Shown here: piece after piece, positions 7,408-31,357 of the stretch
How positions within the stretch are numbered: the first letter of the stretch is position 1
Layout: the number at the start of each line of letters is the position of its first letter
Source: Acidobacteriota bacterium
GTDB taxonomy: Bacteria > Acidobacteriota > Thermoanaerobaculia > Multivoradales > UBA5704
Length of the DNA: 64,000 bases
Direction: 5' to 3'
NCBI GenBank assembly: GCA_040005235.1
Contig: JBDTZG010000004.1
Location: 32,001-96,000 of the forward strand
Position numbers and translations under genes: made by a program
The notes under the pieces: generated by a model
Databases searched by the model: none
Seen by the model: only the letters and a program-made list of their open reading frames with translations
What the model was told of the DNA's origin: nothing

Positions 7408-7656
7408 TCATTCGCCACCGGGCAGGCGATCCTCCGGTCTGGGCTCGGAAGAGGGCACCTTGGCGAGGACCCGCTCGAACAACGCGCGGTCGCCACGGCT
7501 CGCGCGACCCTCCAAATAGGCGACGGTCGTCAAAGCGGCGAGTTTCTCGGCTACGGCGGTCGCGATGAACTGATTCATCGAGATCCCTTCCTGCCGCGCC
7601 AGTTCGCCCACCGAGCGATGCAGGGATTCCGGGAGTCGAAGGCTTAGGGTACTCAT
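7408..7656 (-). CDS. HicB-like RHH antitoxin
   Basis: MSTLSLRLPESLH...ARQEGISMNQFIATAVAEK. Confidence 0.85.
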   Translation of the reverse strand: MSTLSLRLPESLHRSVGELARQEGISMNQFIATAVAEKLAALTTVAYLEGRASRGDRALFERVLAKVPSSEPRPEDRLPGGE

Positions 7657-8084
7657 GGCAATTCTCCTAGAACCGTGAGGAAGTCAGCGGGGGTGAGGAC
7701 TTCGATCCCAAACCGATCGGCGCCGACGAAATCGCGGATATTGAAAGTGACGATGAACTGGCAGCTGCCCGCAACTGCGACCTCAAGCACCATGTCATCG
7801 CCGGGATCGCGAAGCGTCGGGCGCCAGAGAAAGAAGATCTCTTGGCGATGGCTCGTGGCGCAAAGGTAATCGAGAACGACCGCGATATCCTCGACGGTGA
7901 TCGGCGTGATCGCCGGAAGCGGGGCCAGAGCATGTTCGTACTCGAGAACGAGAGGTACGGATACAACGACCTGGAACTTCGACCCGCCGACCAGCTGAAG
8001 CAAACGATACGAGGCACCCTTCGACGACCTCATTGCCGCGTAGAGAACGTTCGTGTCGAGGACGATACGAGGCACTCTTGGCAT
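7653..8084 (-). CDS. PIN-domain toxin
   Basis: IVLDTNVLYAA...LVLEYE...LRDPGDDMVLEVAV...IVTFN.RDF; probable start at 8084. Confidence 0.88.
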   Translation of the reverse strand: MPRVPRIVLDTNVLYAAMRSSKGASYRLLQLVGGSKFQVVVSVPLVLEYEHALAPLPAITPITVEDIAVVLDYLCATSHRQEIFFLWRPTLRDPGDDMVLEVAVAGSCQFIVTFNIRDFVGADRFGIEVLTPADFLTVLGELP

Positions 8085-8159
8085 GGTGGCGCCGATGATA
8101 CCATCGAGTCCGGCCGTCTGACCCTTCCCCACCTGAGGTCCCCCGACCGTTTTCGATCC

Positions 8160-8762
8160 GGCTGGCCCGGGCCGCTTCTCAACGAGCGCGGGTTGAAGAC
8201 ATCGCCGAGTTGGTCGATGCGATCATTAAAAAAGCCGCCGCTCGGCGATCCGAGACTGGAATCGAACCCCTCGGCCCGGCAGCGATCCTCAAGCAACAGC
8301 AGTTCTCTCAACCGGCCAAGACCAAGAAGTCGCCCGCCCCGCTCGTCCACGCCGCCAGCAAACAGGTGCGGACCCAGATCAGGATCACCTACGATTGGTT
8401 TGTCCGGGCCTTCCGCGAGGCGGCGGAATTCCTGAGAGCTGGCGACCGGCAGGCGCGCTTTCCGCAAGGGTGCTTTCCGCCCGGGTTGCCGTTTGTTCGA
8501 GAGGGGCGGTTAGTAGCGATCATGCCGGCCACGTAGTCGGGGATCACCCGTTCAACGCAAAGCAGAGTCCTCTCGAAGTCCCGGCCGGTGGGCCGCGATT
8601 CGCCGCCCCGAGACCCCAAGTGCTTCGATTTTGGCCTCACTTCCTGCCAAGAGCTGGCTTACGCCAGGACCTCTCTACAGCTTCCGGACGCCGGGCGGAG
8701 TCTCTTCGCCTCGCGGTTGCCGCACTTCGAGCGGGGTCGCTCCACCTTTTAGGCACGTTTTG
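8160..8762 (+). mobile_element. RAYT-like HUH transposase remnant (copy 1) with 3' flank
   Basis: C-terminus KTKKSPAPLVHAASK...FREAAE.LRAGDRQARFPQGCFPPGLPFV is near-identical to the copies at 13.9 and 15.3 kb; several internal deletions. Confidence 0.8.
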
Positions 8763-8921
8763 GGCCCGGGGTCAGGTGAAATTCCAAAGATAAGGGCGAG
8801 AGGGTGGCCTCAGGCGTGGCACGATGTGCGCTTGACCTGGCCTTTCGTCAGTGCTCTTATCCTCGATATTCTCACCGAGCGCTCTGTCTCTGTTGGTTAA
8901 GCGAACGATAGAGGAGGCAAT

Positions 8922-9080
8922 ATGAAGGAACGAAAATTCGCCAGAAAACTTTCCGTTTCTCGCGAGACGATTCAGCGTCTGGAAGTCCAGTCACTCCGGG
9001 AAGTCCTGGGGGCCTATACCATGTCGACCTGCAGCTGTATTCAAGGGTGTGCCGGCCAAAGCGCGACCTGCCCTCCTTAG
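8922..9080 (+). CDS. Lanthipeptide-like precursor peptide 1 (52 aa, not in ORF track)
   Basis: GAGGAGG RBS; MKERKFARKLSVSRETIQRLEVQSLREVLGA-YTMSTCSCIQGCAGQSATCPP. KLxxxRET leader and a Ser/Thr/Cys-rich core. Confidence 0.88.
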   Translation: MKERKFARKLSVSRETIQRLEVQSLREVLGAYTMSTCSCIQGCAGQSATCPP

Positions 9081-9256
9081 CACACCGCCCTTCAGCGGAC
9101 TGAGGCCAGAAGCTTCGCGTCTTCCGCGAGACGGTAGAGCCGGCGTTCCCTTTGTTGGGAGGTTCGAAATACTATTTTCAGTTTTCTGGCCGTCGCGTGC
9201 CTGGGAGGCGTTGGGCCTTTCATTTTATTCTGATACGGCCATCTAAAGGAGGAAAG

Positions 9257-9436
9257 ATGAAAAACAAGGTCTTCCGGAAGCTTTCCATCTCCCGCGAGAC
9301 GGTTCATCGCCTTGAGGGTCTGGCACTCGAAGGAGTGGTCGGAGCCGCCACCCTTGCTTGCACTACGGTGACCCGACCAGGGTGCTCGGGTTGCGAGAGC
9401 TGCACCTGCCCGACCCAAGTCACCTGCCCTCCGTAG
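9257..9436 (+). CDS. Lanthipeptide-like precursor peptide 2 (59 aa)
   Basis: AAGGAGG RBS; MKNKVFRKLSISRETVHRLEGLALEGVVGA-ATLACTTVTRPGCSGCESCTCPTQVTCPP. Confidence 0.9.
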   Translation: MKNKVFRKLSISRETVHRLEGLALEGVVGAATLACTTVTRPGCSGCESCTCPTQVTCPP

Positions 9437-9474
9437 AAAAGGCGACCGACCGAGACGCTCAGGCGGAACGTTGG

Positions 9475-10776
9475 ATGGGCAGTCACGGCAAGCATTGGGC
9501 TCCGGTGCTTTCGGGCGATTTGGCCAGAGAAGCGCTCGGAGCCGTTGATGACGTGGCAAAGGACCTCCGCCTCACTTTTTGCGCAGATCCCGCCGGCCCG
9601 GCTTGGTCGCACTTTTCTGAGCGCTACGGCTCGCTAAGTGGCGGTCAGGCCGGGCTGGCCCTATTCTTCTCCTACCTCGACCGTTCCCAGCCGGATCGAG
9701 GCAACGACGTAATCGCTGCAAATTGCCTTGACCGGGCGATCGAATGGATGTCTTCGGCAGAGACCAGCGTAGGCCTATTTACCGGATTTGCCGGCGTGGC
9801 TTGGGCTCTCGAGCACCTTCGCGCGGAGATCGTCGATCCGCAGGCCGAAGACTTGGGCGCGGATGTCGCCACATTTCTTTTGAAGCTGGCCGACGAAACG
9901 CCCTGGCAAGGGGAACTCGATCTTATCGAGGGGCTCGCTGGACTCTGCCTCTACGGCCTTGAACGCCTGCCGCTGCCCGACAGCCGGGAACTGATCGAGG
10001 CGACCGCCACGCGGCTTTACGAGGCCGCTGTGATTCGCGACGATGGATCGAGCTGGTTGACCGCGCCCGAGCGGCTGATTCCGATGCGCCGAGGTCAATA
10101 TCCAAACGGAAACTTCAATCTTGGGCTGGCGCACGGCGTACCTGGAATTGTCGGAGCGCTCGCCCTCGCTGAAGCCGCAGGAATCATTCAGCCCAAGAAT
10201 CAGCTCGTGCTGCGCGACGCGGTGCGATGGCTTCGTGGACAGAGACTCTCGCCAGGAGAGAGGTCGCAATTTCCTTCCTGGGTGGGTGGTACCCAACCGC
10301 CGCAGCCGACGCGTCTCGCATGGTGCTATGGCGATCTCGGAATCGCGCTCGCACTTCACGCTGCCGCACTCGCCATCGGCGAGGAGACTTGGGAGCAACT
10401 GGCGCTGGAAATCGCTCGGGGTGCCGCGGTGCGTCCCGCAGACACTTGCGATGTGGTCGATGCGGGTTTTTGTCACGGCGCCGCAGGCCTGGGCCATCAG
10501 TTCAATCGTCTTTTCCAGAAAACGGGAGACGAGCTGTTCAGAGAGGCGGCGGTCTACTGGCTGCGCCTTACGCTCGAGCTCAGGAGTCCGGGCGAAGGGG
10601 TCGGAGGTTTTCGCGCGCGGGGTCCTGATCGCGCCGATCAAGAGACTTGGCTGGCGGATCCGGGCCTTCTGACGGGGGCTGCAGGTGTGGGCCTCGCTCT
10701 CCTCTCGGCCGCAACAGACGTAGAGCCGAAATGGGATCGGTTGTTTCTATGCTCCGCGCGTGACGACGGGTCCTAA
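9475..10776 (+). CDS. lanC: Lanthionine synthetase C (LanC cyclase)
   Basis: GLAHG, WCYG and FCHG Zn/catalytic motifs plus GxxG repeats; probable ATG at 9475. Confidence 0.92.
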   Translation: MGSHGKHWAPVLSGDLAREALGAVDDVAKDLRLTFCADPAGPAWSHFSERYGSLSGGQAGLALFFSYLDRSQPDRGNDVIAANCLDRAIEWMSSAETSVGLFTGFAGVAWALEHLRAEIVDPQAEDLGADVATFLLKLADETPWQGELDLIEGLAGLCLYGLERLPLPDSRELIEATATRLYEAAVIRDDGSSWLTAPERLIPMRRGQYPNGNFNLGLAHGVPGIVGALALAEAAGIIQPKNQLVLRDAVRWLRGQRLSPGERSQFPSWVGGTQPPQPTRLAWCYGDLGIALALHAAALAIGEETWEQLALEIARGAAVRPADTCDVVDAGFCHGAAGLGHQFNRLFQKTGDELFREAAVYWLRLTLELRSPGEGVGGFRARGPDRADQETWLADPGLLTGAAGVGLALLSAATDVEPKWDRLFLCSARDDGS

Positions 10777-13238
10777 GCGCGACGGAGCAGGCTCAGGATG
10801 TCGAGGCGTACGGCCCTCCTCGCCGCGAGCAGGCTTGCCGCGAGCGCGATGCCAAGGAGGGTCAACGCGACGAGCGCAAGGGTCAGCCCGTCTCGCGGTC
10901 CGATTCCGAACAGCAGGCCGCGCAAGAGGCTGGAGACTGCGAGGGTCAGGGCAAGGCCGAGAACCACTCCTATCGCCACCGGTAAGAGGGCACGACCGAG
11001 GATGCCTCCGAGCAGCCTCCCGCGCGTCGAGCCCAGCGCCAAACGAACGCCGATTTCGAGGCGGGCGCTCGCAACGCTGTACGCCGTAAGGGTGAAAGTT
11101 CCCAGCGCGGCAAGGACCAGCGCCAAGACGGCGAAGAAAGCGGACAGCGCCGAGACGAAGCGCTCTCGAGCCAGCGATCGGGAGATCACCTCCCGCAGCG
11201 TTTTGATATCGGCAAAGGCAAGGTTGCGGTCGAGTGCTCCGAGTTGTCGGCGCATGGGCTGGGTCAGCGAACGAGGCGGGATCGTCGAACGGACGGTGAG
11301 CCTCATGGACCAAATCGGGGTTTGCAGATAGGAGGTAAAAACCTCGGGTCGAGCCGGTGCGCTTCCGCCCTCGAGCCTTTCGTCGCCGACGACTCCGACG
11401 ACCTGGTACCACGTACCGTCCCGGGCCTCGGGATCCTCCGCTAGCGAGATGCGGGACCCCAGCGGATTGGCACCGTGGAAGAGCTTCTTTTCGAGAGCGG
11501 CGTTGATGAGTGCAACCTGGGGAGCGGCCGCGACATCGCTCTCCGCCAGCAAGCGGCCCTTCAAGAGCGGCACCTTGAGAACGGCGAAATACCCTCCGCT
11601 CGCGATGCGATGGCTCGTCTCTACGACGCTCTCTCCCGAGGGGCGACCCTCCAGGTAAACGTCGACCGTCTCCTGGAGCCCTTGCGAAGGGAGAGCATCC
11701 ACCCAGCCTGATGCGACGACTCCTGGAAGCGCTTGGCTCCTTTCGAGAAAGAGATGAAAGAAAGAAGTGATTCGGGAAGGGGCGAAATATTCCGCCGGCG
11801 GCAGGGAGATGCGCGCGGTCAGTACTTGCTCGGGGTCGGCCCCCAGGTTCGCCCGCAGGAGATGTGTCTGGCTTTGCCCGAGCAGGACTGCGCTCGCGAC
11901 GAGAACCACGGCGAGAGCGACCTCCAGGACGACCAGCGCCGATTGCACCCGCTTGCCGCCGACATCGGAAGCTTCCTCAGCCAGGCCCATCGCGGCGGGG
12001 TGCTGCATCAGATGGACGGTGCGCAGAGTCGGAGCGATGCCGAGAAGCACGCCCGCCAACAAAGTGAGGAGAAACGCGAACCCTGCCGCGGTGCTGTCCC
12101 AGCCGATCTCGTTGAGTCGTGCTGCGCTTGGGGCCAGGTTCCGCAGAATGGAGAATGTCCAGGTGCCGAGAAACGTTCCAACACCTCCTCCGAGGAAAGA
12201 GAGAAGGAGCCCCTCGCAAAAAAGTTGCCGGCTCATGCGGAAGCGTCCGGCTCCCAGGGCCGTGCGGATGAAGATCTCTCGCCTGCGGCCCACGATCAGC
12301 GCCAGCTGTAGGATTCCCAGGTTCAGGCAGGCGATCAGCAGGACCATTCCCGCCGATCCGAGCGCCAACAGAAGAGGGCGCTGAAGGTTGCCTTGGATCC
12401 ATTCTTTGAGCGGCGTCAAACCGGGTCGTAGCGTGGCATTGGTGGTTGGAAATTCGCGGCTCAGCCGCTTGGCCACCGTCGCCAGATCGAGCTGCCCTTG
12501 CTGAAGCGAAATTCCCTTCCGGAGTCGTCCGATCGGGCGCAGGGAGTGGCCGCTACGAAAGTAAGGGTTCGTCACCTGGCTGGGCTGCCATTTGAAGGGC
12601 AGCCAAACATCCAGATCGGGAAACGGATAGGAGAAACCGTCCGGCATCACGCCGACGACGGTGCGCGAAATGCCGTCAATACGGACGGTCCGTCCTAGAA
12701 CTGCAGGATCTCCGCCCTGCCGGTGCCATAGCCCGTAGGAAAGGAGCACGACGGGAGAATGGCCCTCCCAGCTCTCCTCTTCGCGAAAGACTCTTCCGAT
12801 CAGGGGTTTCGCTTCGAGAACGGAGAAGAAGTTCCCATAGACCATCGCGCCGACGATGGATTGCGGCTCGCCTGCTCCTGACAGCGTCAGCTCGGTCGAC
12901 TGATCCGAGTGAGCGGTAATGTCGAGGAATGCCGACCGCGCTTGGCGATAGTCGAGGAAATCGGCGGGTGATACTTGGACGAATCGCCAATCTTTTTCGA
13001 GATCCTCTTCCCAAACCGCGACCAGCCGGTCGGAGTTGGGGAAGGGCAGGGGCCGAAGCAGCACCCCATTGACCGCTTGGAATACCGCAACGTTGGCGCC
13101 GATGCCCAGCGCCAGCGTGAGCGCCGCGCCAATAAGCTGGCCGAAACGGCGGCGATAAAAGCGCAGAGCGAAAAAAAAGTCTTGCGCCAGACCAAGCCTC
13201 CCCTGACCAGGCGATCGCGCAATTCTCCCATCCGGCAT
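10773..13238 (-). CDS. ADOP-family duplicated MacB/FtsX-type ABC permease
   Basis: QD..FALR...TLALGIGAN.AVF..VNGVLLRPLP; two FtsX halves (RRREI.IR.ALGA and EIGVRLALG). Confidence 0.9.
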   Translation of the reverse strand: MPDGRIARSPGQGRLGLAQDFFFALRFYRRRFGQLIGAALTLALGIGANVAVFQAVNGVLLRPLPFPNSDRLVAVWEEDLEKDWRFVQVSPADFLDYRQARSAFLDITAHSDQSTELTLSGAGEPQSIVGAMVYGNFFSVLEAKPLIGRVFREEESWEGHSPVVLLSYGLWHRQGGDPAVLGRTVRIDGISRTVVGVMPDGFSYPFPDLDVWLPFKWQPSQVTNPYFRSGHSLRPIGRLRKGISLQQGQLDLATVAKRLSREFPTTNATLRPGLTPLKEWIQGNLQRPLLLALGSAGMVLLIACLNLGILQLALIVGRRREIFIRTALGAGRFRMSRQLFCEGLLLSFLGGGVGTFLGTWTFSILRNLAPSAARLNEIGWDSTAAGFAFLLTLLAGVLLGIAPTLRTVHLMQHPAAMGLAEEASDVGGKRVQSALVVLEVALAVVLVASAVLLGQSQTHLLRANLGADPEQVLTARISLPPAEYFAPSRITSFFHLFLERSQALPGVVASGWVDALPSQGLQETVDVYLEGRPSGESVVETSHRIASGGYFAVLKVPLLKGRLLAESDVAAAPQVALINAALEKKLFHGANPLGSRISLAEDPEARDGTWYQVVGVVGDERLEGGSAPARPEVFTSYLQTPIWSMRLTVRSTIPPRSLTQPMRRQLGALDRNLAFADIKTLREVISRSLARERFVSALSAFFAVLALVLAALGTFTLTAYSVASARLEIGVRLALGSTRGRLLGGILGRALLPVAIGVVLGLALTLAVSSLLRGLLFGIGPRDGLTLALVALTLLGIALAASLLAARRAVRLDILSLLRRA

Positions 13239-13299
13239 CGCTCATTATTACGACAGCCGCGCTAGCAGCGCAACGATGCAGCGTTCGAGTTTCGCGCCC

Positions 13300-14422
13300 G
13301 GCCGCCCCAAGGAGGTTCGCTCTACGAGGTGACCTGCCGCACCTTCCAGAGCCGGTTCCTCCTGTGGCCGGGTCCGCTGCTCAACGAGATCATCGTCGGC
13401 GACCTCGGCCGAGCGCAGCGCCTCTACCTGATCGACATCTGCGCGTTCTTTTTTGCCTCCAATCACTTCCACCTCTTAGCGCGGGTCGAAGACAGCGAGC
13501 GCCTCACCCGCTTCATGGGCTATTTCAACTCGAAGCTCGCCCGCGAGATCGCCCGATCGACCGGCTGGCGGGACAAGGTCTTCTCTCGCCGTTACCAGGC
13601 CATCCTCGTGAGCGACGAGGAAGAGGCTGGGTCGGGCGCCTGGTCTACATCCTTTCCCATGGCTGCAAAGAGAACCTGGTCGCCCGCCCCCAGGATTGGC
13701 CGGGAGTCCAATGCGTCACCGCCCTGCTCACCGGCCAGCCGATCGAGGGAACCTGGTTCGATCGCACCAAGGAATGGAAGGCGAGGGTAGGCGGGGAAGA
13801 GTTCGGCGTCCCGCAGTTCGCCGAAACGGAAGTCGTGAACCTCGCGCGCTTGCCCTGCTGGCAGCATCTCTCGGCGGAGCCGTACCGCGGCCGGATCGCC
13901 GAGTTGGTCGAGGCGATCCTCCGGCAGCAACCGTTTTCCCAGCCCGCTAATTAAGACGAAGAAGTCGCCCGCGCCACTCGTCCACGCCGCCTGCAAGCGG
14001 GTCCGTACCCAGATCAGGATCACCTACGCCTGGTTCGTTCGGGCCTTCCGCGAGGCGGCCGAGTACCCGAGAGGCCGGCGACCGGCAGGCGCGATTTCCC
14101 CAAGGATGCTTTCCGCCCGGCTTGCCGTTCGTTCGAGCGGGCCGGTAGGGAATCACACCGGCTACGTAGTCAACATCACCCGCTCAACTCGAAGCAGAGC
14201 ACGCTCGAAGTCCCGGCTGTCAGGCCTGTGGGCTGCGATTCGGCGCCTACGTGGCCGCCACGATCGTCAGCCGGCCCGATCTCCACCTCATTCACCGCCA
14301 TGGGCTGGCGGCGAAGGGGCTCCGTCTCCAACTTCCGGTTGCCACGAGGGGGCCTTTCGACACCCCTTTTCCGGGCTGCAGGCTTCGAGGTGTTCTTCTC
14401 CCAGAAGAGGGTGGCACCTTTT
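13300..14422 (+). mobile_element. RAYT-like (IS200/Y1 HUH) transposase pseudogene (copy 2) with 3' flank and end motif
   Basis: YEVTCRT...SNHFHLL (HUH)...FSRRY...YILSHGCKENLV..P.DWPG, broken by frameshifts; ends CCAGAAGAGGGTGGCACCTTTT at 14401-14422. Confidence 0.85.
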
Positions 14423-14519
14423 GGGGCGGGAGGACCGGGAGGACCACAACCACTCCTGCAAAAGCTTGAAGGGGTGCTAGGCTGCTTCCGTCGGCCACCT
14501 AACGGCTTAGGAGAACTAG

Positions 14520-14672
14520 ATGAAGAATGCAGCCAGGAAATTGACCCTCGCCAAAGAAACCCTCCTGTCCCTCAAGAAGCCAGACCTCACCCATGTGGCC
14601 GGAGGGAATAAGGCCGCGTCCTCTCAAGCATGGCCCGACGGCATCTGCCCGGACTCATACTGTTTCTGCTAG
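14520..14672 (+). CDS. Lanthipeptide-like precursor peptide 3 (50 aa, not in ORF track)
   Basis: AGGAGA RBS; MKNAARKLTLAKETLLSLKKPDLTHVAGG-NKAASSQAWPDGICPDSYCFC. Confidence 0.82.
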   Translation: MKNAARKLTLAKETLLSLKKPDLTHVAGGNKAASSQAWPDGICPDSYCFC

Positions 14673-14830
14673 AGAACTCCAGCGAGGTGCCTTGAAGCTT
14701 CCAAGGGCCCCGCCTGCTCCAACCCGAACTCCCTCTCTGCTCGTGTCCGGGTCGAGCAGAGAGATTCTGCACCTTCTGCGATTCGGGTTATTCCAGAACC
14801 GGCTGGCACGCTTTGCTGCGGGCTCTTCTC

Positions 14831-15773
14831 CCAGAAGAGGATGGCACCTTTTCCGGTTGGACAAGGTCTTCTCTCGCCGTTACCAGGCAATCCTCGTGAG
14901 CGACGAGGAAGAGGCCCAGGTCGGGCGCCTGGTCTACATCCTTTCTCATGTCTGCAAAGAGAACCTGGTCGCCCGACCCCAGGATTGGATTGGCCGGGAG
15001 TCCAATGCGTCACCGCCCTGCTCACCGGCCAGCTGATCGAGGGAACCTGGTTCGATCGCACCAAGGAATGGGAAGCCAGGCTTCGCGGCGAAGACTTCGG
15101 CGTCCGGCAGTTCGCCGAAACGGAAGTCGTGAACCTCGCCCCCTTGCCCTACTGGCGGCGTCTCTCGGCGGAGGAGTACCGCGACCGGATCGCCGAGTTG
15201 GTCGAGGCGATCGTTGAAAAAGCCGCAGCTCGGCGATCCGAGACGGGAATTGAACCCCTCGGCCGGGCAGCGATCCTCAAGCAGTACCCGTTCTCGCAGC
15301 CGACCAAGACCAAGAAGTCGTCGGCGTCGCTCGTCCACGCCGCCAGCAAACGGGTGCGTACCCAGATCAGGATCACCTACGCCTGGTTTGTTAGGGCCTT
15401 CCGCGAGGCAGCCGAGTACCTGAGAGCCGGCGACCGGCAGGCGCGCTTTCCGCAAGGATGCTTTCCGCCCGGCTTGCCGTTCGTTCGAGCGGGCCGGTTG
15501 GCGAGCACGCCGTCCACGTAGTCAGGATCACCCGCTCAACGCGAAACAGAGCCCGCTCGAAGTCCCGGCCGCTTGGCCGGTGGGCCGCGATTCGGCGTCT
15601 ACGTGGCCGGCACGATCGTCAGCCGACCCGATCTCCACCTCCTACCGCCATAGGCTGGCGGCGAAGGGGCTCCCTCTCCAACTTCCGGTTGCCACGAGAG
15701 GGCCTTTCGACCCCCTTTGCCGGGGCTGCTGCACTTCGAGGTGCTAGTCTCCCAGAAGAGGGTGGCACCTTTT
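14831..15773 (+). mobile_element. RAYT-like transposase remnant (copy 3, 5'-truncated), bracketed by end motifs
   Basis: Motif at 14831-14852 and 15752-15773; the coding part starts at DKVFSRRYQAIL and is frameshifted near 14990. Confidence 0.85.
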
Positions 15774-15774
15774 G

Positions 15775-15899
15775 GGTTCGATGAGCGGCGGTGGGAAACG
15801 GAACTGCGGCCGAGACTGAGGCACCGGCATCCACGCGAAAGCCGCCGGTCAACAGCGACTCCCTCGAACTACAGCCACCGCGCCCGCCGTCGGCTGTAC
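15775..15899 (+). mobile_element. Group II intron 3' remnant (3' half of DV plus DVI)
   Basis: GGTTCGATGAGCGGCGGTGGGAAACGG...CTACAGCCACCGCGCCCGCCG..CTGTAC, homologous to 17207-17325. Confidence 0.8.
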
Positions 15900-16159: not shown

Positions 16160-16423
16160 ATGAAAACCTTCGGTCTTCTTCTCTGCATGCTTCTAGTAGC
16201 CGGAACTCTGATGGCAACCCCAATTCTCGCTCCGACCGCGATTGAGGCCTCAGCCATCCCATCCCCTGATCTTCAGGCGATCTTCAGCAAGATGTCGTGT
16301 CAGACTAGTGCCGTCAACGACCCGGTAAACGAGAACGTATCGCCGTCGCAGTGCGGTCGTTGCTACTGCGACCCGGGACAGGCGTGCCATCTCTTTGCCG
16401 ACGGCTCGTGCAGCTGCGGCTAA
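16160..16423 (+). CDS. Small secreted Cys-rich peptide (signal, pro-region, Cys core)
   Basis: MKTFGLLLCMLLVAGTLMA...DLQAIF...QCGRCYCDPGQACHLFADGSCSCG; AGAGG RBS; followed by a hairpin. Confidence 0.7.
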   Translation: MKTFGLLLCMLLVAGTLMATPILAPTAIEASAIPSPDLQAIFSKMSCQTSAVNDPVNENVSPSQCGRCYCDPGQACHLFADGSCSCG

Positions 16424-17325: not shown

Positions 17326-17464
17326 CCTTTTGACGGGAAGTTGGTGTATCTTGACGCCTCTAGATCCCGGATGCGCCTGCCCGTTGCGTGGAAGACGGCG
17401 TTCGCGCCTGTGGACTCGGAACCCACCGGGGTTCACTAGATCTGCGAAAGGAAGGAGGCTGTTT

Positions 17465-20440
17465 ATGCACCCTCGTGCGCTGTTCGCCGCCCTTTCCGCT
17501 GCCTTGAACCGTAGCTGTAGGCCGGTCCCACGAACGGCTGTGTCGATCCGCTCGCGATACGGCGCTTTCCTAGCATTCTTTTTCCTGGCAGCTGTTCCGG
17601 CCTTGCCGCAGGGCCATGCACAAGTCGAGTTCCTCACCTACCTGCCTCACACCGAAGCGAAGCTATCCGCACTGGTCAGCGGAATGCTGAGCGACAGAGA
17701 GGTCGAGGTGAACGTGTCACCTCTCCTAGATGGGAGCCATCGCCCGTTTCACCTCCAACTCCCTAATGGGGAGCAGTACCTGGTAACCGGTGCGCGTGAG
17801 GCTCTCAAGAATTCAAGGATATATACTTGGCAGGGGACTCTCTTGGTTTCCGGTGAGCGCGTAGGTCAAATCGTGATCAGCGTTCAGAACGGAGCCATCG
17901 CCGGGAAGATCTACACCAAAGAGGTGACTTACGTACTGTCTCCGCTCGGAAATGGCAGGGCAATCCTTTCACAACTCGACGATCCCGAGCCCTTGCCCTG
18001 TGGCGTCTCTCCTGAGGACGTCGTAATTGTTCGAGAGGGCAGTGACGGGGTCGCCTCAAGCCCTCCCTCGGTTTCTCCCTATGCTGAGGACGGCTCCATC
18101 ATTGACGTGCTCGTGTTCTACACGGCACAGGCACGCGAGATCGCTGGCGGGCGCGACAACGTCGAGTCCACTATCCTGATGGCTGTCAGCGACGCAAATC
18201 TCGCTTTCCAAAACAGCGAAGTCAGTACCCGTTTTAACCCGGTCGGCGTTCAAGAGATCGAGTACGAGGAGACCAGGAGCAGCGAAAGCGATTTGAATTG
18301 GCTAACGAACGACGACACCGTAGCTCAAATCCGGAACGAGCTTGCTGCCGACTTGGTTGGTATGGTGGTGTCCGTTATCGACGGCGATGGAGGGAGAGCG
18401 CGCATCATGGGACCCAACGACGTGGGCACCGGCTTTGCGCCCTATGCTTTCCAGGTCTCCGCCTGGAGTGGCCTGAATTTTCAAATTTTGGCTCATGAGT
18501 TCGGCCATTCTATGGGTGCCACTCATAATGTCGAGGTACCGGGTAGTGGTACTCCAGCTTTTCCTTACGGCCACGGTCATTACGTGGATGGCTCATTCCG
18601 GACCATCATGTCCTACCCAAACCTGGTTTATTGCCCGCACTCTTGCCCTGTGGTCCCGCATTTCTCTAATCCCGCGGTCGAAATAAATGGCGATCCGACC
18701 GGAGTGGCAGAGGAGCAGGATAACCACCGGGTTCTGAACCAGACGGCGGTCTATGTAGCGAACTTCCGAGTGCCTCTGCCCCGAACCCCGGAAAATGTTC
18801 AGGCATCGGACGGCACCTACATGGATCGCGTCCGAACCACGTGGAACTCTGTCGACAGGGCGGAGTTTTACGCGCTCTATCGCTCTGCCTCCACAACCGG
18901 CCCGAAGACGGCTATTGCGAGTTCCTTAGCTTTGACAAGCTTCGATGATACCTCGGCAATCGCGGGTACGACCTACTATTATTGGGTCAAGGCATCGAAC
19001 TCGGCTGGCTCAAGCAACCTCAGTCCCTACAACACTGGCTATCGCGCGGCGGCTCCTCCAGCGGCGCCGACGGGAGTTTCGGCAACGGATGGTGCTTACA
19101 CAGACCGCGTGCGGATCACCTGGAGCACGGTGTCCGGAACGACTTACTCCGTTTTCCGCGCGACCTCGACAAGCGGCGCTAAAACGTCCATCGCGACCTC
19201 CTTAACATCAACAAACTTCGATGACGCCTCGGTAATCGGGGGCACGACCTACTATTATTGGGTCAAGGCTTCGAACTCATCCGGTTCGAGTGACTTCAGT
19301 TCCTACAACACTGGCTATAGCGCGGTTGCTCCTCCAGCGGCACCTGCGGGGGTTTCGGCCACTGATGGCACCTACACAGACCGCGTGCGGATCACCTGGA
19401 ACGCGGTGTCCGGGGCGACGTACTCCGTCTTCCGAGCGACGTCGACAAGCGGCACCAAGACGACCCTCGCGACCTCCTTGACTGCGACCAGCTTGGATGA
19501 CACCTCGGCGGTCGCTGGCCAGACCTATTATTACTGGGTCAAAGCGATGAACTCATCCAGCTCGAGCGATTTCAGCTCCTACAACACCGGCTATCGCGCG
19601 GTTGCTCCCCCAGAGGCCCCGACGGGGGTTTCGGCTACTGACGGCACCTACACAGACCGTGTGTGGATCACCTGGAACGCGGTGTCTGGAGCCACGACGT
19701 ATTCCGTCTTCCGAGCCACGTCAACAAGCGGCGCCAAGACAACCATTGCAACCTCCTTAACGTCGGCCAGCTTCGATGACACCTCGGGAGCCGCGGGTAC
19801 GACCTATTATTACTGGGTCAAGGCATTGAATTCATCCGGCTCAAGCGACTTCAGTTCCTACAACGCTGGCTACCGTGCGGCTGCCCCTCCAGCGGCACCG
19901 ACGGGGGTTTCGGCAACAGATGGCTCGTACACAGACCGCGTGCGGATCACCTGGAACACGGTGTCTGGGGCGACTTATTTCGTCTACCGAGCGACCTCGA
20001 CAAGCGGCACCAAGACGACCATCGAAAACTCCTTAACTTCGACAAGTTTCGATGACACCTCGGCAGTCGCGGGTACGATCTACTATTATTGGGTCAAGGC
20101 ATCGAGTTCATCTGGCTCAAGTGACTTCAGTTCCTACAACACTGGCTATCGCGCGGTTGCTCCCCCAGTGGCACCGACTGGAGTTTCCGCAACCGATGGC
20201 ACTTACACAGACCGTGTGCGGATCACCTGGAACGCGGTCTCCGGAGCCTCCGGATACGTGGTTTATCGAGCGACATCAACGAGCGGGACCAAGACTGTCT
20301 TGGCATACTCATTGGCATTCACGAGCTTCGATGACACCTCGGCGATCGCGGGCACAACCTACTACTACTGGGTCAAGGCATCGAACTCATCCGGCTCAAG
20401 TGACTTAAGTTCTTACAACACCGGCTATCGGAGGAGATAG
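17465..20440 (+). CDS. Secreted M12 (reprolysin-like) metallopeptidase with six tandem FN3-like repeats
   Basis: HEFGHSMGATH metzincin motif and Met-turn RTIMSY; six ~92-aa repeats (P.GVSATDG.YTDRVRITW...YYYWVKA). Confidence 0.9.
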   Translation: MHPRALFAALSAALNRSCRPVPRTAVSIRSRYGAFLAFFFLAAVPALPQGHAQVEFLTYLPHTEAKLSALVSGMLSDREVEVNVSPLLDGSHRPFHLQLPNGEQYLVTGAREALKNSRIYTWQGTLLVSGERVGQIVISVQNGAIAGKIYTKEVTYVLSPLGNGRAILSQLDDPEPLPCGVSPEDVVIVREGSDGVASSPPSVSPYAEDGSIIDVLVFYTAQAREIAGGRDNVESTILMAVSDANLAFQNSEVSTRFNPVGVQEIEYEETRSSESDLNWLTNDDTVAQIRNELAADLVGMVVSVIDGDGGRARIMGPNDVGTGFAPYAFQVSAWSGLNFQILAHEFGHSMGATHNVEVPGSGTPAFPYGHGHYVDGSFRTIMSYPNLVYCPHSCPVVPHFSNPAVEINGDPTGVAEEQDNHRVLNQTAVYVANFRVPLPRTPENVQASDGTYMDRVRTTWNSVDRAEFYALYRSASTTGPKTAIASSLALTSFDDTSAIAGTTYYYWVKASNSAGSSNLSPYNTGYRAAAPPAAPTGVSATDGAYTDRVRITWSTVSGTTYSVFRATSTSGAKTSIATSLTSTNFDDASVIGGTTYYYWVKASNSSGSSDFSSYNTGYSAVAPPAAPAGVSATDGTYTDRVRITWNAVSGATYSVFRATSTSGTKTTLATSLTATSLDDTSAVAGQTYYYWVKAMNSSSSSDFSSYNTGYRAVAPPEAPTGVSATDGTYTDRVWITWNAVSGATTYSVFRATSTSGAKTTIATSLTSASFDDTSGAAGTTYYYWVKALNSSGSSDFSSYNAGYRAAAPPAAPTGVSATDGSYTDRVRITWNTVSGATYFVYRATSTSGTKTTIENSLTSTSFDDTSAVAGTIYYYWVKASSSSGSSDFSSYNTGYRAVAPPVAPTGVSATDGTYTDRVRITWNAVSGASGYVVYRATSTSGTKTVLAYSLAFTSFDDTSAIAGTTYYYWVKASNSSGSSDLSSYNTGYRRR
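18775..20430 (+). repeat. Six intragenic ~276-279 bp tandem repeats
   Basis: Repeat starts near 18775, 19055, 19331, 19607, 19885 and 20161. Confidence 0.9.
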
Positions 20441-21979: not shown

Positions 21980-22242
21980 CGGGTAGTTGTGGCGGTTCCC
22001 CTTTTGGGGTGTCATTATAGGTGGCACAGTGCCGACCTTAGGTCCGGTTTTATAGAGTTGACGCCCGGCAAAGGCGTTGCAGGAGAGGCGGAAGCCGGCG
22101 CCTTGCGGGAATCGGATTCGTGCTGCTAGGATGCTTGTGACGAATTTCACAAGGCCCAGCCACCGAGCATGACCCTGGGAGGGGGGGTGCTCACTTGCGG
22201 CTGGGCTTTGAGCTGGGTACCGCCGTAGCCCCGGGGGACGAG

Positions 22243-22893
22243 ATGGCGCAGATCTTCCACCGCAGCACGAACACGATCGCCAAAGTGAGCCTCTTTGGGG
22301 GAGTGATCTTCGTGGGCCTGTTCTTCTGGGTCTATTCGAGTCTCCTCGATTCCGGTTACGGCACGCAGCAGGGGGTCGTCCGGGAGCAGCCCGTGCCGTT
22401 CAGTCACGAGCACCACGTGGCCGGGCTGGGGCTCGACTGTCGGTATTGCCACTTCTCGGTCGAGAAATCGGCGAACGCGGGCATTCCTCCCACCCAGGTC
22501 TGCATGAATTGCCATCGATACATCTGGACCAACGCCGAGCTGCTCGCCCCGGTGCGCGAGAGCTTCGCCAAGAACCAGCCGCTGCGGTGGACCAAGGTGC
22601 ACGACCTGCCCGACTACGTCTACTTCAATCACAGCATCCACGTCGCCAAAGGGATCGGCTGCGCCTCGTGCCACGGCCGGGTCGATCAGATGGCGCTGAT
22701 GCGGCAGAACGCGCCGCTCACCATGTCGTGGTGCGTCGATTGCCACCGCAACCCGGAAAAGAACATCCGCCCGCGCTCCGAGGTCTTCAACATGGCCTGG
22801 GTTCGGCCGCCGCATTTCGGCGCGGAGGCGGCGAAGCTGATCCAGGAATACGACGTCAAGCCTCAGACGACCTGCTCGACCTGCCATCGGTAA
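22243..22893 (+). CDS. actA: Alternative complex III pentaheme cytochrome c
   Basis: Five CxxCH motifs; MAQIFH start; QPVPFSHEHH. Confidence 0.93.
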   Translation: MAQIFHRSTNTIAKVSLFGGVIFVGLFFWVYSSLLDSGYGTQQGVVREQPVPFSHEHHVAGLGLDCRYCHFSVEKSANAGIPPTQVCMNCHRYIWTNAELLAPVRESFAKNQPLRWTKVHDLPDYVYFNHSIHVAKGIGCASCHGRVDQMALMRQNAPLTMSWCVDCHRNPEKNIRPRSEVFNMAWVRPPHFGAEAAKLIQEYDVKPQTTCSTCHR

Positions 22894-22914
22894 GGTCGGA
22901 GAGGAACTTTCGAC

Positions 22915-25900
22915 GTGAGAGACGAGATCCTTAGCGCTATGGAACTTCCAGACGGTCTGCCCGCCTTAAGCGAGGCGCCGATTCCCGGCCTTGGGCCGGA
23001 GCCCGCGGCTTCCGGGCCGATCGATTTGGCGGCGGTTCGAGAGCATCTGGGTGCCCAAGACCGGCAGGGCGCGCCGCTCTGGCGGAGCCTCGACGAGTTG
23101 GCCGCGACGCCGACGTTTCAAGACTGGCTGCACCGCGAATTTCCGCGCCAGGCCTCGGAATGGCTGGAGAATCCGGCGGACGGTCTCTCCCGGCGCAATT
23201 TTCTCCAGCTGTCCGGCGCGTCGTTGGCGCTCGCCGGTCTTGCCGGATGTACCAAGCAGCCGGTCGAAAAAGTCGTGCCTTACGTCAACATGCCGGAGGG
23301 GATGATTCCCGGCCGGCCGATGTACTTCGCGACCACGATCACCCAGGGGGGCTACGGCGTCGGCGTGATCGCCGAGAGCCACGAGGGCCGGCCGACCAAG
23401 CTCGAAGGCAACGCCGATCACCCTTCGAGCCTCGGCTCGACCGATGCCCGCACCCAGGCGGCGATCATCGGTCTGTACGACCCGGCCCGGTCGACCACCA
23501 TCCGCTACATCCAGCAGACGCGGAGCTGGAGCGATTTCACCGGCGCGATCGTGGCTGAAATCCGGGCGCTCGAAGCGCTCCAGGGCGAGGGGCTGCGGTT
23601 CATTTCGGGCGCCACCACCTCGCCGACGTTCGCCACCCAGATGACCGCGATCCTCGCCCGCTTCCCGCAGGCCAAGTGGCATCGCTGGGAACCGGCCGCC
23701 CCGCATGCGGCCCGGGCGGCGGCGATCGCGTCTTTCGGCAGTCCGCAAGAGACGGTCTACGACTTTACGAAAGCGAAAGTCGTCCTTTCGCTGGGCGCCG
23801 ATTTCCTGACCCAGGGTCCCTCGAGCATCCGCTACGCGCGCGATTTTTCCCAAGGTCGCCGGCCGCGCAGCGAACGGCTCGAAATGAACCGCTACTACGC
23901 GGTCGAGAGCTCGCCGACCGCCAGCTCGACGATCGCCGACCACCGGATGATCCTGGCCCCGGCGGAGCTTGAAGCGTTCGCGCTCGGCGTCGCTGCGGGA
24001 GTGGGAGCGGCGGGGGTTTCCGCGGCCACGGTGCCCGACAAGGCGAAAGCCTTCCTCGATGCGGCGGTCGCCGACTTGAAGGCCAACGCCGGGGCGAGCG
24101 CGGTGATCGCCGACCCTTACGGCTCGGTCGAAATGCAGGTCTTGGCGCATGTGATCAACTTGGGCCTGGGAAACGTCGGGCAAACCGTCTCCTACCCGCC
24201 CGTCCTCGAAGTCGATCCGATCGATCACGTGGCCTCGATCGTCGAGCTGGGCCGCGACCTCGCCGCGGGCAGAGTCGAGATGCTCGTGGTGCTCGGCTCG
24301 AACCCGGTCTATGACGCTCCCGCCGAGCTCAAATTCGGCGAGGCGATCAAGAAGGCGAAGAGCCGCGTTCATTGGGGTCTTCACGACGACGAGACCGGCG
24401 AGCTGTGCCAGTGGCACATCACCGGCACCCACGAGCTGGAGAGCTGGGGCGACGCGCTCGCTCACGACGGGACGGCTTCGCTGATCCAGCCGCTGGTCGA
24501 GCCGCTCTATGGCGGCAAGTCGGCCATCGAGTTCCTCGGCGTGTTCCAAGACAAGCTCGAAGCCTCGGGGTACGACCTGGTGCATGAGACCTGGGCCGCG
24601 CGGCTTGGCGGCGCGGGCGATCCGGAAAAGGCCTTTCGCAAGGCGATCCACGATGGTGTGATTCCGCCGACTGCGACCACCGCGACCCCTGCCGGAAGCT
24701 CCGGGGCTTTTTCGGCCGCCGCGGCGGGCACTGCGGCCCAGGCGATCGCCGGCCGGGCTGCCGGAACGCCCGGAGGGAAAGCCTCCGCGAGCGCGCTGCC
24801 GCTCCTGTTCCGGCCCGATCCGACGCTTGGGGACGGCAGCCTCGCCACCAACGCTTGGCTTCAGGAGCTGCCGAAGCCGATCACCAAGCTGGTCTGGGAC
24901 AACGGTCTGATCGTCTCGCCCAGGACCGCGCAGGATCTTGGGCTCGCGATGGAAGGCAAGGCCGAGATCGACCTGGCCGGCCGCAAGCTCGAAGTGGGCG
25001 TCTGGGTCCAGCCGGGGCACGCCGACGGTTGCGCGACTCTTCATTTAGGTCACGGCCGGTGGACCGCCGGACCGCTCGGCAGCGGCCACGGATTCAACGC
25101 CTACAAGCTGCGCGGCAGCGATTCGCTTGGGTCCGCGGTCGTGGCGGTCAAGCCGTTGCCCGGCCGTTATGTGTTCGCCAACACCCAGAACCATCACCTG
25201 CTCGAAAGCGGCGCCGACGAGTACAAGACGGCGACCGAAGAGGTGAAGATCCGCCAGCCGGTCAAGGCTCTCACGCTGGCCGAATTCGCGGCGATGCATG
25301 CCGGCGATCACGTCGGGAAGAAGGAAGGCGGGCACGGCGGCGAAGAAGAGAAGCCCGCGACGCTCTTCCCGCAGACTTGGGAATACAACGGTCACGCCTG
25401 GGGGATGTCGATCGACCTTTCGGCCTGCACCGGTTGCGTCGCTTGCGTGATCGCCTGCCAGGCGGAGAACAACATCCCGATCGTCGGCAAGGAACAGGTG
25501 ATCAAGGGGCGCGAGATGCACTGGATCCGGATCGACCGCTACTTCGCGGGCGACCTCGACGATCCGCAGCTGATGAACCAGCCGGTCCCCTGCATGCAGT
25601 GCGAGCAGGCGCCGTGCGAGGTGGTCTGTCCGGTCGCGGCGACGGTGCACAGCGAAGAGGGCCTGAACGACATGGTCTACAACCGCTGCGTCGGCACCCG
25701 CTACTGCTCGAACAACTGCCCGTACAAGGTGCGCCGCTTCAACTTCCTGCGCTACTCGAATCACGACGTGCCGGTGCTCAAGCTGGCGATGAACCCCGAC
25801 GTCACGGTGCGCATGCGCGGCGTGATGGAAAAATGCACCTACTGCGTCCAGCGCATTCACGAGGTGCGGATCGACGCCCGGGTCGCCCAGCGGCCGATCA

Positions 25901-26115
25901 AGCCGGGCGAGATCGTCACCGCCTGCCAGCAGGCCTGCCCGACCGAGGCGATCGTCTTCGGCGATCAGAACGATCCGGCCTGGGCGGTCACGCGGGAAAA
26001 AGCCCAGCCGAGCGGGTACACCCTGCTCGAAGAGCTGAACACCCGGCCGCGCACCACCTATCTGGCCAAGATCACCAACCCCAACCCGCAGCTTTCGAGC
26101 GCGGAGAGGAGCTGA
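22915..26115 (+). CDS. actB: ACIII molybdopterin oxidoreductase-like / Fe-S subunit
   Basis: WRSLDEL, Tat-like SRRNFL, EGRPTKLEGN, C-terminal Fe-S motifs (CTGCVAC, CMQCEQAPC, CVGTRYC). Confidence 0.95.
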   Translation: MRDEILSAMELPDGLPALSEAPIPGLGPEPAASGPIDLAAVREHLGAQDRQGAPLWRSLDELAATPTFQDWLHREFPRQASEWLENPADGLSRRNFLQLSGASLALAGLAGCTKQPVEKVVPYVNMPEGMIPGRPMYFATTITQGGYGVGVIAESHEGRPTKLEGNADHPSSLGSTDARTQAAIIGLYDPARSTTIRYIQQTRSWSDFTGAIVAEIRALEALQGEGLRFISGATTSPTFATQMTAILARFPQAKWHRWEPAAPHAARAAAIASFGSPQETVYDFTKAKVVLSLGADFLTQGPSSIRYARDFSQGRRPRSERLEMNRYYAVESSPTASSTIADHRMILAPAELEAFALGVAAGVGAAGVSAATVPDKAKAFLDAAVADLKANAGASAVIADPYGSVEMQVLAHVINLGLGNVGQTVSYPPVLEVDPIDHVASIVELGRDLAAGRVEMLVVLGSNPVYDAPAELKFGEAIKKAKSRVHWGLHDDETGELCQWHITGTHELESWGDALAHDGTASLIQPLVEPLYGGKSAIEFLGVFQDKLEASGYDLVHETWAARLGGAGDPEKAFRKAIHDGVIPPTATTATPAGSSGAFSAAAAGTAAQAIAGRAAGTPGGKASASALPLLFRPDPTLGDGSLATNAWLQELPKPITKLVWDNGLIVSPRTAQDLGLAMEGKAEIDLAGRKLEVGVWVQPGHADGCATLHLGHGRWTAGPLGSGHGFNAYKLRGSDSLGSAVVAVKPLPGRYVFANTQNHHLLESGADEYKTATEEVKIRQPVKALTLAEFAAMHAGDHVGKKEGGHGGEEEKPATLFPQTWEYNGHAWGMSIDLSACTGCVACVIACQAENNIPIVGKEQVIKGREMHWIRIDRYFAGDLDDPQLMNQPVPCMQCEQAPCEVVCPVAATVHSEEGLNDMVYNRCVGTRYCSNNCPYKVRRFNFLRYSNHDVPVLKLAMNPDVTVRMRGVMEKCTYCVQRIHEVRIDARVAQRPIKPGEIVTACQQACPTEAIVFGDQNDPAWAVTREKAQPSGYTLLEELNTRPRTTYLAKITNPNPQLSSAERS

Positions 26116-26118
26116 GGC

Positions 26119-27527
<1,409 letters not shown>

Positions 27528-27531
<4 letters not shown>

Positions 27532-28085
27532 GCGCTTCCGTCGCCGGCCCTCCCGTCGGTCCGTGGGGCCTGATGGCCGAGTTCCCGGACCCGAAAAGCT
27601 TGGCCCAAGCAGCGCGCCGGACCCACGACGCCGGATATCGCAGAGTCGAGGCCTATACGCCCTTTCCAGTCGAAGAGGTGATGGAGGCGCTCGACCATCA
27701 CCATTCGAAGGTGCCTCTGATGGTGCTGATCGGCGGCATCCTGGGCGGCCTCGGCGGCTTCGGCCTGCAGATGTGGACCAACCTTTCGGCCTATCCGATG
27801 AACATCGGCGGCCGGCCGCTGATCAGCTGGCCGGCGTTCATCATTCCGACGTTCGAATGCACGATCCTCGGAGCCTGCCTCTCCGCGGTGATCGGGATGT
27901 TCGCGTTGAACGGCTTGCCGATGCCCTACCACCCGGTGTTCAACGTGCCGCGGTTCTCCGAGCGCGCTTCGACCGACGGCTATTTCCTGGTCATCGAAGC
28001 GGCCGACCCGAAGTTCGATCGCAGCGGCACGGAGATCTTCCTTCAGGACCTGAATCCCAGCGAGGTGTCCGAGGTTGAGCCCTAA
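27528..28085 (+). CDS. actD: ACIII subunit (DUF3341)
   Basis: MAEF, EAYTPFPV, YPMNIGGRP..SWPAF. Confidence 0.92.
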
Positions 28086-28089
28086 ACCG

Positions 28090-28797: not shown

Positions 28798-28798
28798 C

Positions 28799-30004: not shown

Positions 30005-30498
30005 CCAACCCGCACGGGCATTCGACCGATCCGTCCGGCGAGGCCACGGACAGCGAGCTGAACGTCAAGGCGATCGTCTACGCCGGGGTCGGAACCGTCG
30101 TCGTGACGCTCGTTTCGATGATCCTGGTCTTCTGGATGTTCCAAGGTTTCAAGAAGCTGGAGGACCGGGAAGACCCGAAGCCCTCCGCGCTCCCCGAAGC
30201 GGCGGAAAGGCAAGTGCCCCCCTCGCCGCGGCTGGAGCTCTCGCCGCCGGAGAACCTCAAAGAGCTGCGCGAGAGCGAGGCGACGGTGCTCGACGCCCCG
30301 TCGTGGATCGATCAGGCCCAGGGCAAAGTCCGTTTGCCGATCGATCTCGCGCTCGACGTCGTCGCGCGCCGCGGTCTGGGCGAGGCGCCGTCCGCCGAAG
30401 CCGCTCCGACCCCGGCGGAGACCCCCGCGGCGCCTGGCACCACGCCGGCGGCCGCCGATTCCACCGCTGCCGCCCCGCCGGCCGGAGGCGCGCATTGA
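30001..30498 (+). CDS. ACIII-associated small membrane subunit (ActG-like)
   Basis: Single TM, PP.PRL, W.D...G.VRLPID.A; lies between actF and SCO. Confidence 0.75.
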   Translation: MTNPHGHSTDPSGEATDSELNVKAIVYAGVGTVVVTLVSMILVFWMFQGFKKLEDREDPKPSALPEAAERQVPPSPRLELSPPENLKELRESEATVLDAPSWIDQAQGKVRLPIDLALDVVARRGLGEAPSAEAAPTPAETPAAPGTTPAAADSTAAAPPAGGAH

Positions 30499-31355: not shown

Positions 31356-31357
31356 CC

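Follow-up and report, generated by a model that had tools for sequence, protein, structure and literature searches.

Genes of the locus

The stretch analyzed here, referred to below as the window, comprises 64,000 nucleotides of contig C35 (positions 32001-96000) of a Thermoanaerobaculia metagenome-assembled genome, G000, which totals 6.22 Mb in 140 contigs, is 100% complete, and belongs to a genus labelled g1. The window carries three short precursor genes of lanthipeptide type, designated lanA1, lanA2, and lanA3, together with a gene for a stand-alone LanC cyclase and a convergent gene for an ADOP permease, at the following positions:

8922-9080, forward strand: lanA1, 52 aa; leader ending in GA; 21-residue core with 4 Cys and 6 Ser/Thr; C-terminus CPP
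9257-9436, forward strand: lanA2, 59 aa; leader ending in GA; core with 6 Cys and 9 Ser/Thr; C-terminus CPP
9475-10776, forward strand: lanC, stand-alone cyclase of 433 aa starting at ATG 9475; PF05147 E 5.5e-42
10773-13238, reverse strand: ADOP permease of 821 aa, duplicated MacB/FtsX type; its stop codon overlaps the lanC stop
14520-14672, forward strand: lanA3, 50 aa; exact LxLxKx5L box; leader ending in GG; core with 3 Cys and 3 Ser

Purine-rich Shine-Dalgarno-like sites lie 4-6 nt 5' of the ATG of all three precursor genes (AGAGGAGG at 8910-8917 for lanA1, AAGGAGG at 9246-9252 for lanA2, and AGGAG at 14509-14513 for lanA3), confirming and placing the three short open reading frames (ORFs) with ribosome-binding sites that had been proposed in the initial annotation. 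In the mechanical ORF list lanA2 is present only as a 94-aa form beginning at TTG 9152. Alignment of the leaders yields L-x-[LIV]-x-[KR]-x5-L followed by GA, GA, and GG, respectively, in keeping with the common leader described at first, and the Ser/Thr and Cys counts given for the cores (6/4, 9/6, and 3/3) are correct. The stop codon of lanA2 is only 38 nt 5' of the lanC start, and lanA2 is therefore probably co-transcribed with lanC. Models of the Nif11 and NHLP leader types do not match the precursors at E<=1. The cores are hypervariable: neither lanA2 nor lanA3 has a close homologue elsewhere, and in seven other genomes of the genus lanA3 finds one weak match at 43% identity. A search of 5.8 billion proteins with lanA2 returned only lanA2 itself, which says little because the search needs shared words.

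The GLAHG, WCYG, and CHG motifs of the window LanC, initially annotated as intact, are confirmed by their alignment with the motifs of NisC (2G02); the protein was also aligned to 8BYK. Zinc ligands Cys284, Cys333, and His334 and the GLAHG histidine are intact, and these residues are invariant in an alignment of seven LanC sequences. In a tree of 29 LanC sequences with SH-aLRT support, the clade of the window LanC includes LanCs that adjoin LanB in genomes G054, G047, and G028, as well as two LanB-less arrangements described below, namely modules of the type found on contig C115 and the LanC pair on contig C68 of G034, a member of the same genus. Identity of the window LanC to the other sequences of the tree does not exceed 48% (46% for the G034 LanC), and the LanCs nearest to it by this measure adjoin LanB.

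A promoter and terminator scan of positions 8600-14900 returned no promoter-like site and nine terminator-like sites, compared with 6.1 +/- 2.6 in shuffled sequences, and is uninformative. Positions 8800-14800 of the window were found in four DNA sequencing runs from a single study, of which two may be the source sample; these runs are labelled soil and root metagenomes.

LanB, C39 exporter, and LanC genes elsewhere in the genome

A scan of the 60 larger ORFs of the window gave no match to the LanB, DUF4135/LanM, or C39 families, bearing out the initial statement that LanB, LanM, and a C39 transporter are missing from the window. The genome-wide search for LanB that had been suggested at the outset found exactly one, an intact protein of 1125 aa on contig C66, in which PF04738 and PF14028 are matched over their full length with 569 and 224 bits. 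Its gene is flanked by gcvP and an ABC solute-uptake operon. The same contig carries, 42 kb from LanB, the one C39 ABC exporter of G000 together with an HlyD/GAF partner; as C66 is the sole contig of the genome with a LanB or a C39 domain, both are outside the window. Neither a LanC nor a precursor is found on C66, and no LanC remnant is detected beside LanB even at E<=10.

Three LanC matches occur in G000, in the window and on contigs C115 and C8, all in open frames of stand-alone size (467-502 aa), and no LanC domain of the genome lies in a long frame of the LanM, LanKC, or LanL type. The LanC gene of C115 is directly 3' of a precursor gene and adjoins groES/groEL, and it thus constitutes a second lanA-lanC module without LanB. 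Modules of this type are kept in genus-mates G027 and G019, with ratios of nonsynonymous to synonymous substitution (dN/dS) of 0.21-0.29 and nearly identical precursors, and the LanB-less C115-type module is under purifying selection.

The third LanC paralogue (C8:30069-34190, reverse strand) is in an operon with a 950-aa M1 aminopeptidase/HEAT-repeat protein and has no precursor nearby. LanCs of the C8 type form a separate, slowly evolving clade with short branches in six genomes of the genus. This LanC and the aminopeptidase could act as a general cyclase and a leader-trimming peptidase for stray precursors. SPASM radical-SAM proteins were considered as alternative maturases and rejected; G000 has three, none of them near a precursor.

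Precursor genes across the genome

The six-frame translation of G000 was searched for the pattern L-x-[LIV]-x-[KR]-x5-L with no more than 90 residues after it. The pattern occurs 27 times, 25 times with at least two Cys, compared with two occurrences in the reversed genome, neither having two Cys. A hidden Markov model (HMM) of the leader was built from these 25 matches and recovers 34 targets at E<=1e-3 and 38 at E<=1, compared with 0 and 4 in the reversed genome; the 25 seeds match by construction, and nine of the 34 targets are new. The window precursors score E 3.1e-10 (lanA1), 8.3e-11 (lanA2), and 2e-10 (lanA3). The further precursors that the initial annotation proposed to look for thus exist, 34-38 genes with the same leader, spread over about 30 contigs. 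One candidate, on C24, is truncated.

Overall composition of the 38 cores is 17.9% Cys and 24.4% Ser+Thr, and 37 of them contain at least two Cys together with Ser+Thr at least equal to Cys. Four of the 38 candidates are within 10 kb of a LanC gene and 34 are not; none is on the LanB contig. Large tetratricopeptide (TPR) proteins fused to a CHAT protease, a Ser/Thr kinase, or an HTH domain are encoded within 5 kb of eight precursor loci (on C101, C111, C121, C130, C21, C88, C76, and C90); TPR proteins are common in this genome, and their proximity may be due to chance.

Co-occurrence and gene order in relatives

The joint distribution of leader, LanC, and LanB was followed in a sample of 61 genomes of the family. 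LanB matches (PF04738) are present in 54 of them, and an orthologue of the C66 LanB, at about 500 bits or more, in most. NF038153, the curated model for leaders of the LxLxKx5L type, finds matches in 49 genomes, up to 31 in a single one, and homologues of the window LanC (E<=1e-30) are likewise found in 49. Every leader-positive genome (49/49) and every LanC-positive genome (49/49) has a LanB match. Leader, LanC, and conserved LanB are absent together from 11 genomes in five genera, so that the joint absences fall in several genera:

Genomes without leader and LanC: G002, G005, G007, G013, G017, G023, G026, G033, G042, G057, G058

In seven of these 11 no LanB match is found at all; the LanB matches of the other four are all weak and divergent (best E 2e-75 to 1e-11). 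Two genomes, both incomplete, depart from the pattern, G008 (89% complete), which has LanB and LanC with no leader match, and G043 (82% complete), which has LanB and the leader with no LanC match. This co-occurrence is the main argument that the three components function together, and also the main argument against chemistry performed by LanC without a dehydratase.

Outside g1, among genomes that are closed or almost so, a convergent LanC lies 0.1-0.2 kb from the conserved LanB in G054, G047, and G028 and 5.2 kb from it in G006; in G021 no LanC is found within the 12 kb examined around LanB. In genus g1, LanB is present as a single copy in all eight genomes, and none of the three LanC genes of G000, nor any of 13 in five other genomes, is on the LanB contig. 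Even with abutting contigs, a distance of some 57 kb or more would separate LanB from LanC in G000.

A survey of 78 LanC loci, taken from contigs of one genome per species, places these distances in a wider frame. LanB is within the flank at 44 loci, usually in the order lanA-lanC-lanB. The other 34 have no LanB in the flank, and 19 of these have a leader-type precursor. When only the 41 loci with full 10-kb flanks are counted, 24 have LanB and 17 do not, nine of the 17 having a precursor. These 17 loci, together with the dN/dS of the C115 type, indicate that LanB-less lanA-lanC modules are common and that at least one type is under selection.

The leader HMM also recognizes precursors beside lanC-lanB pairs at 24 of the 78 loci, which belong to Acidobacteriota, Myxococcota, Planctomycetota, Chloroflexota, Gemmatimonadota, and a Paenibacillus. 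Because of these matches and because the leader is of the LxLxKx5L type, the window peptides are predicted to be class I LanA-type precursors. Passages of Walker et al. (2020, PMC7268733) describe LxLxKx5L in place of FxLD in some class I LanAs of Bacteroidetes, and state that many such leaders end in Gly-Gly and that a C39 protease is often present in the cluster. Since more distant relatives have lanA-lanC-lanB rows and the window LanC is nearest to LanB-adjacent LanCs, the window module appears to derive from a canonical lanA-lanC-lanB cluster.

The convergent ADOP permease

The permease encoded convergently with lanC matches TIGR03434 with 750.2 bits (cut-off 622.3) over model positions 1-802 of 803, and MacB_PCD and FtsX are each found in two stretches of the protein. 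No ABC_tran domain is found among the ORFs flanking the locus, and there is no adjacent ATPase gene. ADOP permeases are abundant in Acidobacteria, and we know of no function for any of them.

The closest related locus, on C68 of G034, has the order precursor, LanC, LanC, and convergent ADOP with overlapping stop codons, and likewise no LanB. Its precursor, 5' of the LanC pair, has a core similar to that of lanA2, and its flanks differ from those in the window. The two ADOPs are 37% identical and are sisters with SH-aLRT 99 in a tree of 17 ADOPs from G000 and nine from other LanC loci. Across about 100 distinct LanC loci inspected, an ADOP-like gene is at most 1 kb from LanC in six and is beside LanB in one more. 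Within G000, proximity of precursor and ADOP genes by tblastn is confined to the window locus, with three of the 38 candidates, and the curated ADOP model places two full-length ADOPs and one fragment at most 2 kb from a precursor, which is weak when taken alone.

The ADOP gene is thus probably part of the lanA-lanC module, a link that rests on synteny with the G034 locus rather than on precursor-ADOP proximity within the genome. The initial annotation had connected the permease with the peptides; conserved synteny and the sister relationship of the ADOPs add support to the linkage, and the function is the weakest step. Transporters of the FtsX/MacB type (BceAB/NsrFP-type and MacB-type) act in peptide-antibiotic resistance and export. 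By analogy, the ADOP would most likely protect the cell from its own peptide product, or transport or sense that product at the envelope.

Surroundings of the locus

The module lies among copies of a RAYT/IS200-like repeat of about 1.35 kb, which contains frameshifted Y1-transposase-like ORFs (PF01797 E 5.8e-5, NF047646 E 4e-4). Copies in and around the locus, for which no strand is assigned, are as follows:

8201-8595: partial copy of the RAYT/IS200-like repeat, 5' of lanA1; repeat families D1, D2, D5
13303-15780 (13303-14430 and 14813-15780): two tandem RAYT-like copies bracketing lanA3; repeat families D2-D7, D9, D10

In G000 the repeat is found only on C35 (1-12300) and C18 (18600-28600), interleaved with precursor genes on both contigs, and all five other genus genomes searched contain many copies. 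The repeats may move or shuffle precursor genes. DNA matches in the region surrounding the module, at 2.5-17.3 kb, are patchy among the matches listed and consist mostly of the RAYT/IS200-like element.

Just 5' of the module, at 7408-8132 on the reverse strand, a PIN-domain toxin (159 aa) and an overlapping HicB/RHH-like antitoxin (82 aa) are encoded, which fits a variable island. Directly 3' of the third RAYT-like copy, an 87-aa ORF (16160-16423, forward strand) follows a AAAAGAGG site; its N-terminus resembles a signal peptide, and its C-terminal third is rich in Cys. Its leader type is unlike that of the lanA genes, and the enclosing ORF has no Pfam or NCBIfam match. About 2.7 kb 3' of lanA3 is a gene for a 1036-aa reprolysin-like (M12B) metallopeptidase with fibronectin-III domains (17330-20440, forward strand). 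Farther downstream are ordinary respiratory genes (22195-34702, forward strand), namely those for alternative complex III (multihaem cytochrome, Fe-S subunit, NrfD, ActD) and then those for SCO1 and cytochrome c oxidase subunits II, I, and III. A 1020-aa protein encoded at 39707-42766 on the reverse strand is an unusual fusion of an Asp/Asn beta-hydroxylase, a sulfotransferase, and DUF4915 (E 1.5e-127).

Discussion

The best reading of the locus is that of a class I satellite module within an unclustered lanthipeptide system spread over the genome of a soil/root Thermoanaerobaculia (Acidobacteriota) bacterium. The peptides would be dehydrated in trans by the solo LanB on C66, and we assign this reading a probability of roughly two in three. 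The satellite would probably comprise lanA1, lanA2, and lanC, with the ADOP gene probably included, and lanA3 counts among the stray precursor genes beyond it, about 35 in number. The suggestion in the initial annotation that a LanB acts in trans on scattered precursor and LanC modules is strengthened by the C66 LanB, the 34-38 precursor genes, the C115 module, and the co-occurrence across 61 genomes.

Gene content, motifs, distribution, co-occurrence, and synteny are observed here; the enzymatic steps, each of which we infer, would be as follows. The single C66 LanB would recognize the common leader and dehydrate core Ser and Thr residues via glutamyl-tRNA, as LanB enzymes do. The local LanC, as a dedicated cyclase, would then form thioether rings on the lanA1 and lanA2 peptides, and stray precursors could be cyclized by any of the three LanCs or spontaneously. 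The C39 ABC exporter of C66 with its HlyD partner would cleave after GG or GA and export the peptides, and the ADOP gene would travel with lanA and lanC as one block.

Several observations weigh against this interpretation. Some concern the evidence itself. The three window leaders match NF038153 over its full length but score under its 22-bit cut-off (lanA1 17.4 bits, E 0.0036; lanA2 13.7 bits, E 0.054; lanA3 20.9 bits, E 0.0003), which other precursors of G000 pass, and the leader HMM was derived from the same genome in which it finds its targets. The co-occurrence was counted over related genomes and is not independent evidence. For the LanC-ADOP pairing, the six adjacencies compare with about 0.6 expected given some 20 ADOP genes per 6.2 Mb, but this expectation is a rough estimate over loci that are not independent, and the window ADOP and the other LanC-adjacent ADOPs do not fall into a single clade. 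No RNA run is found among the sequencing runs listed for positions 8800-14800. Other observations concern the origin of the module, which sits in a variable island rich in transposase-like repeats that have decayed, and for which positions from about 8600 to 13300 have no DNA match in five genus genomes among the matches listed. The window LanC is on a long branch (0.84) in a clade with SH-aLRT of only 91%. The ADOP occupies the place where relatives have lanB, and a truncation would look alike. It is possible that the module is a recently acquired, unused fragment.

These last points, along with the neighboring toxin-antitoxin genes and the presence of LanB at 44 of 78 related LanC loci, mostly directly 3' of lanC, would be accounted for if a lanA-lanA-lanC-lanB operon had been acquired horizontally into the island and had lost lanB, leaving a non-functional remnant that resembles the resident system. 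We consider such a remnant unlikely. The LanC is full length with all invariant residues present, and lanA1 and lanA2 each retain a leader box, a cleavage motif, a ribosome-binding site, and a core rich in Cys, Ser, and Thr. Loci without LanB (17 of 41 with full flanks, nine of the 17 with a leader-type precursor) include the C115 type, which is under purifying selection, and a usable LanB is present elsewhere in the same genome. Moreover, the G034 locus has the same LanB-less ADOP layout despite only 46% LanC and 37% ADOP identity, indicating that the arrangement has been kept for a long time. The possibility raised with the initial annotation, that relatives carry an adjacent lanB that was deleted here, holds in its first part, as the 44 loci show, and not in its second; LanB is relocated rather than lost, and the closest syntenic locus is also without it.

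A different explanation takes most of the scattered genes, lanA3, and possibly lanA1 and lanA2 as encoding double-glycine-leader peptides, exported by the C39 transporter and stabilized by disulfides, with bacteriocin-like or signalling functions and no lanthionines. It would agree with leaders ending in GG or GA in a genome with one C39 exporter, with the 34 of 38 candidates that have no LanC within 10 kb, with TPR, CHAT, kinase, or HTH-TPR proteins beside eight precursor loci, and with a lanA3 core of only 3 Ser and 3 Cys. An export-only leader is not expected to track LanB, however, and this leader is found only in LanB-positive genomes (49/49) and is absent from all seven without LanB. Passages of PMC7268733 record this leader in class I LanAs, Ser+Thr at least equals Cys in 37 of the 38 cores, and lanA1 and lanA2 are directly 5' of a cyclase gene, all of which make the double-glycine explanation quite improbable. 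The other alternative named in the initial annotation, LanC-only chemistry, would have Cys thiols added to another electrophile or glutathione or thiol transferred in LanCL-like fashion. The lack of a dehydratase in the window would suit it, and the C8-type LanC, with its M1 aminopeptidase and no precursor, indicates that some LanCs here may serve for something other than lanthipeptide cyclization. Nevertheless, none of the 49 family genomes with this LanC type is without a LanB match, the window LanC groups with LanCs adjoining LanB, and the precursors have a class I leader; no other dehydratase type was found in G000, which has no LanC domain in a long frame and no SPASM protein near a precursor. 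We regard LanC-only chemistry as highly improbable.

Dehydration in trans of a satellite module can be compared with known systems. In nisin biosynthesis (NisA/NisB/NisC/NisT/NisP), the LanC motifs match those of NisC, and LanB has both Pfam domains; unlike nisin, the leader here is not FxLD, the genes are dispersed, and the locus has no LanP subtilisin, no LanT without C39, no LanFEG, and no LanI. In relation to BceAB/NsrFP-type and MacB-type permeases, the ADOP shares the MacB periplasmic core and FtsX and adjoins lantibiotic-type genes, and unlike LanFEG or BceAB-type transporters it is a duplicated permease without an adjacent ABC ATPase gene. The nearest published analogue is the class II prochlorosin system, reportedly described by Li and colleagues in 2010. 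Systems with ProcM and SyncM (see also PMC11251773) share with the present one a single dehydrating enzyme per genome, dozens of scattered precursors, a conserved leader, and hypervariable cores; their LanM is a fused enzyme with a CCC zinc site and their leaders are of the Nif11 type, whereas here a split class I system has LanB and several CCH LanCs. With the LxLxKx5L class I systems of Bacteroidetes, as passages of PMC7268733 present them, the present system shares the leader box, the GG/GA end, separate LanB and LanC, a C39 ABC exporter, and Cys/Ser/Thr-rich cores. It differs from what those passages describe in being unclustered, with LanB, exporter, and most precursors on other contigs, and in its three LanC paralogues (two with their own precursors), Thermoanaerobaculia host, and ADOP in the module. 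Class II and III lanthipeptide clusters of Acidobacteriota are treated in passages of PMC13083261, and those of PMC10352776 describe stand-alone LanC-like genes in Bacteroidales without the zinc triad, unlike the window LanC. In the full-text literature searched, supplements aside, neither an unclustered class I system with satellite LanC modules nor class I lanthipeptides of Thermoanaerobaculia were found. The present analysis contributes the system's precursors and cyclases, the cross-genome co-occurrence, and the LanC-ADOP block.

More tentatively, and at somewhat less than even odds, Thermoanaerobaculia may possess a system that is to class I what the prochlorosins are to class II, in which one vertically inherited LanB would serve dozens of hypervariable, scattered precursors, and mobile lanA-lanC(-ADOP) satellites would add ring topologies, each with its own cyclase and a MacB-like permease for self-protection or export. 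If this is true, it would provide a first functional context for the orphan ADOP family, for which the recurrent pairing of LanC and ADOP is a lead to function, and a natural test of substrate sharing by one LanB and several LanCs. It would also represent an architecture of ribosomally made, post-translationally modified peptides missed by cluster-based genome mining. Lanthipeptide mining seeks adjacent LanB and LanC, and a system of one dehydratase, dispersed cyclases, and about 35 precursors would be largely invisible to it. With the leader present in 49 of 61 family genomes, soil Acidobacteriota would, if the trans model is true, constitute a large, untapped, and naturally combinatorial class I lanthipeptide library.

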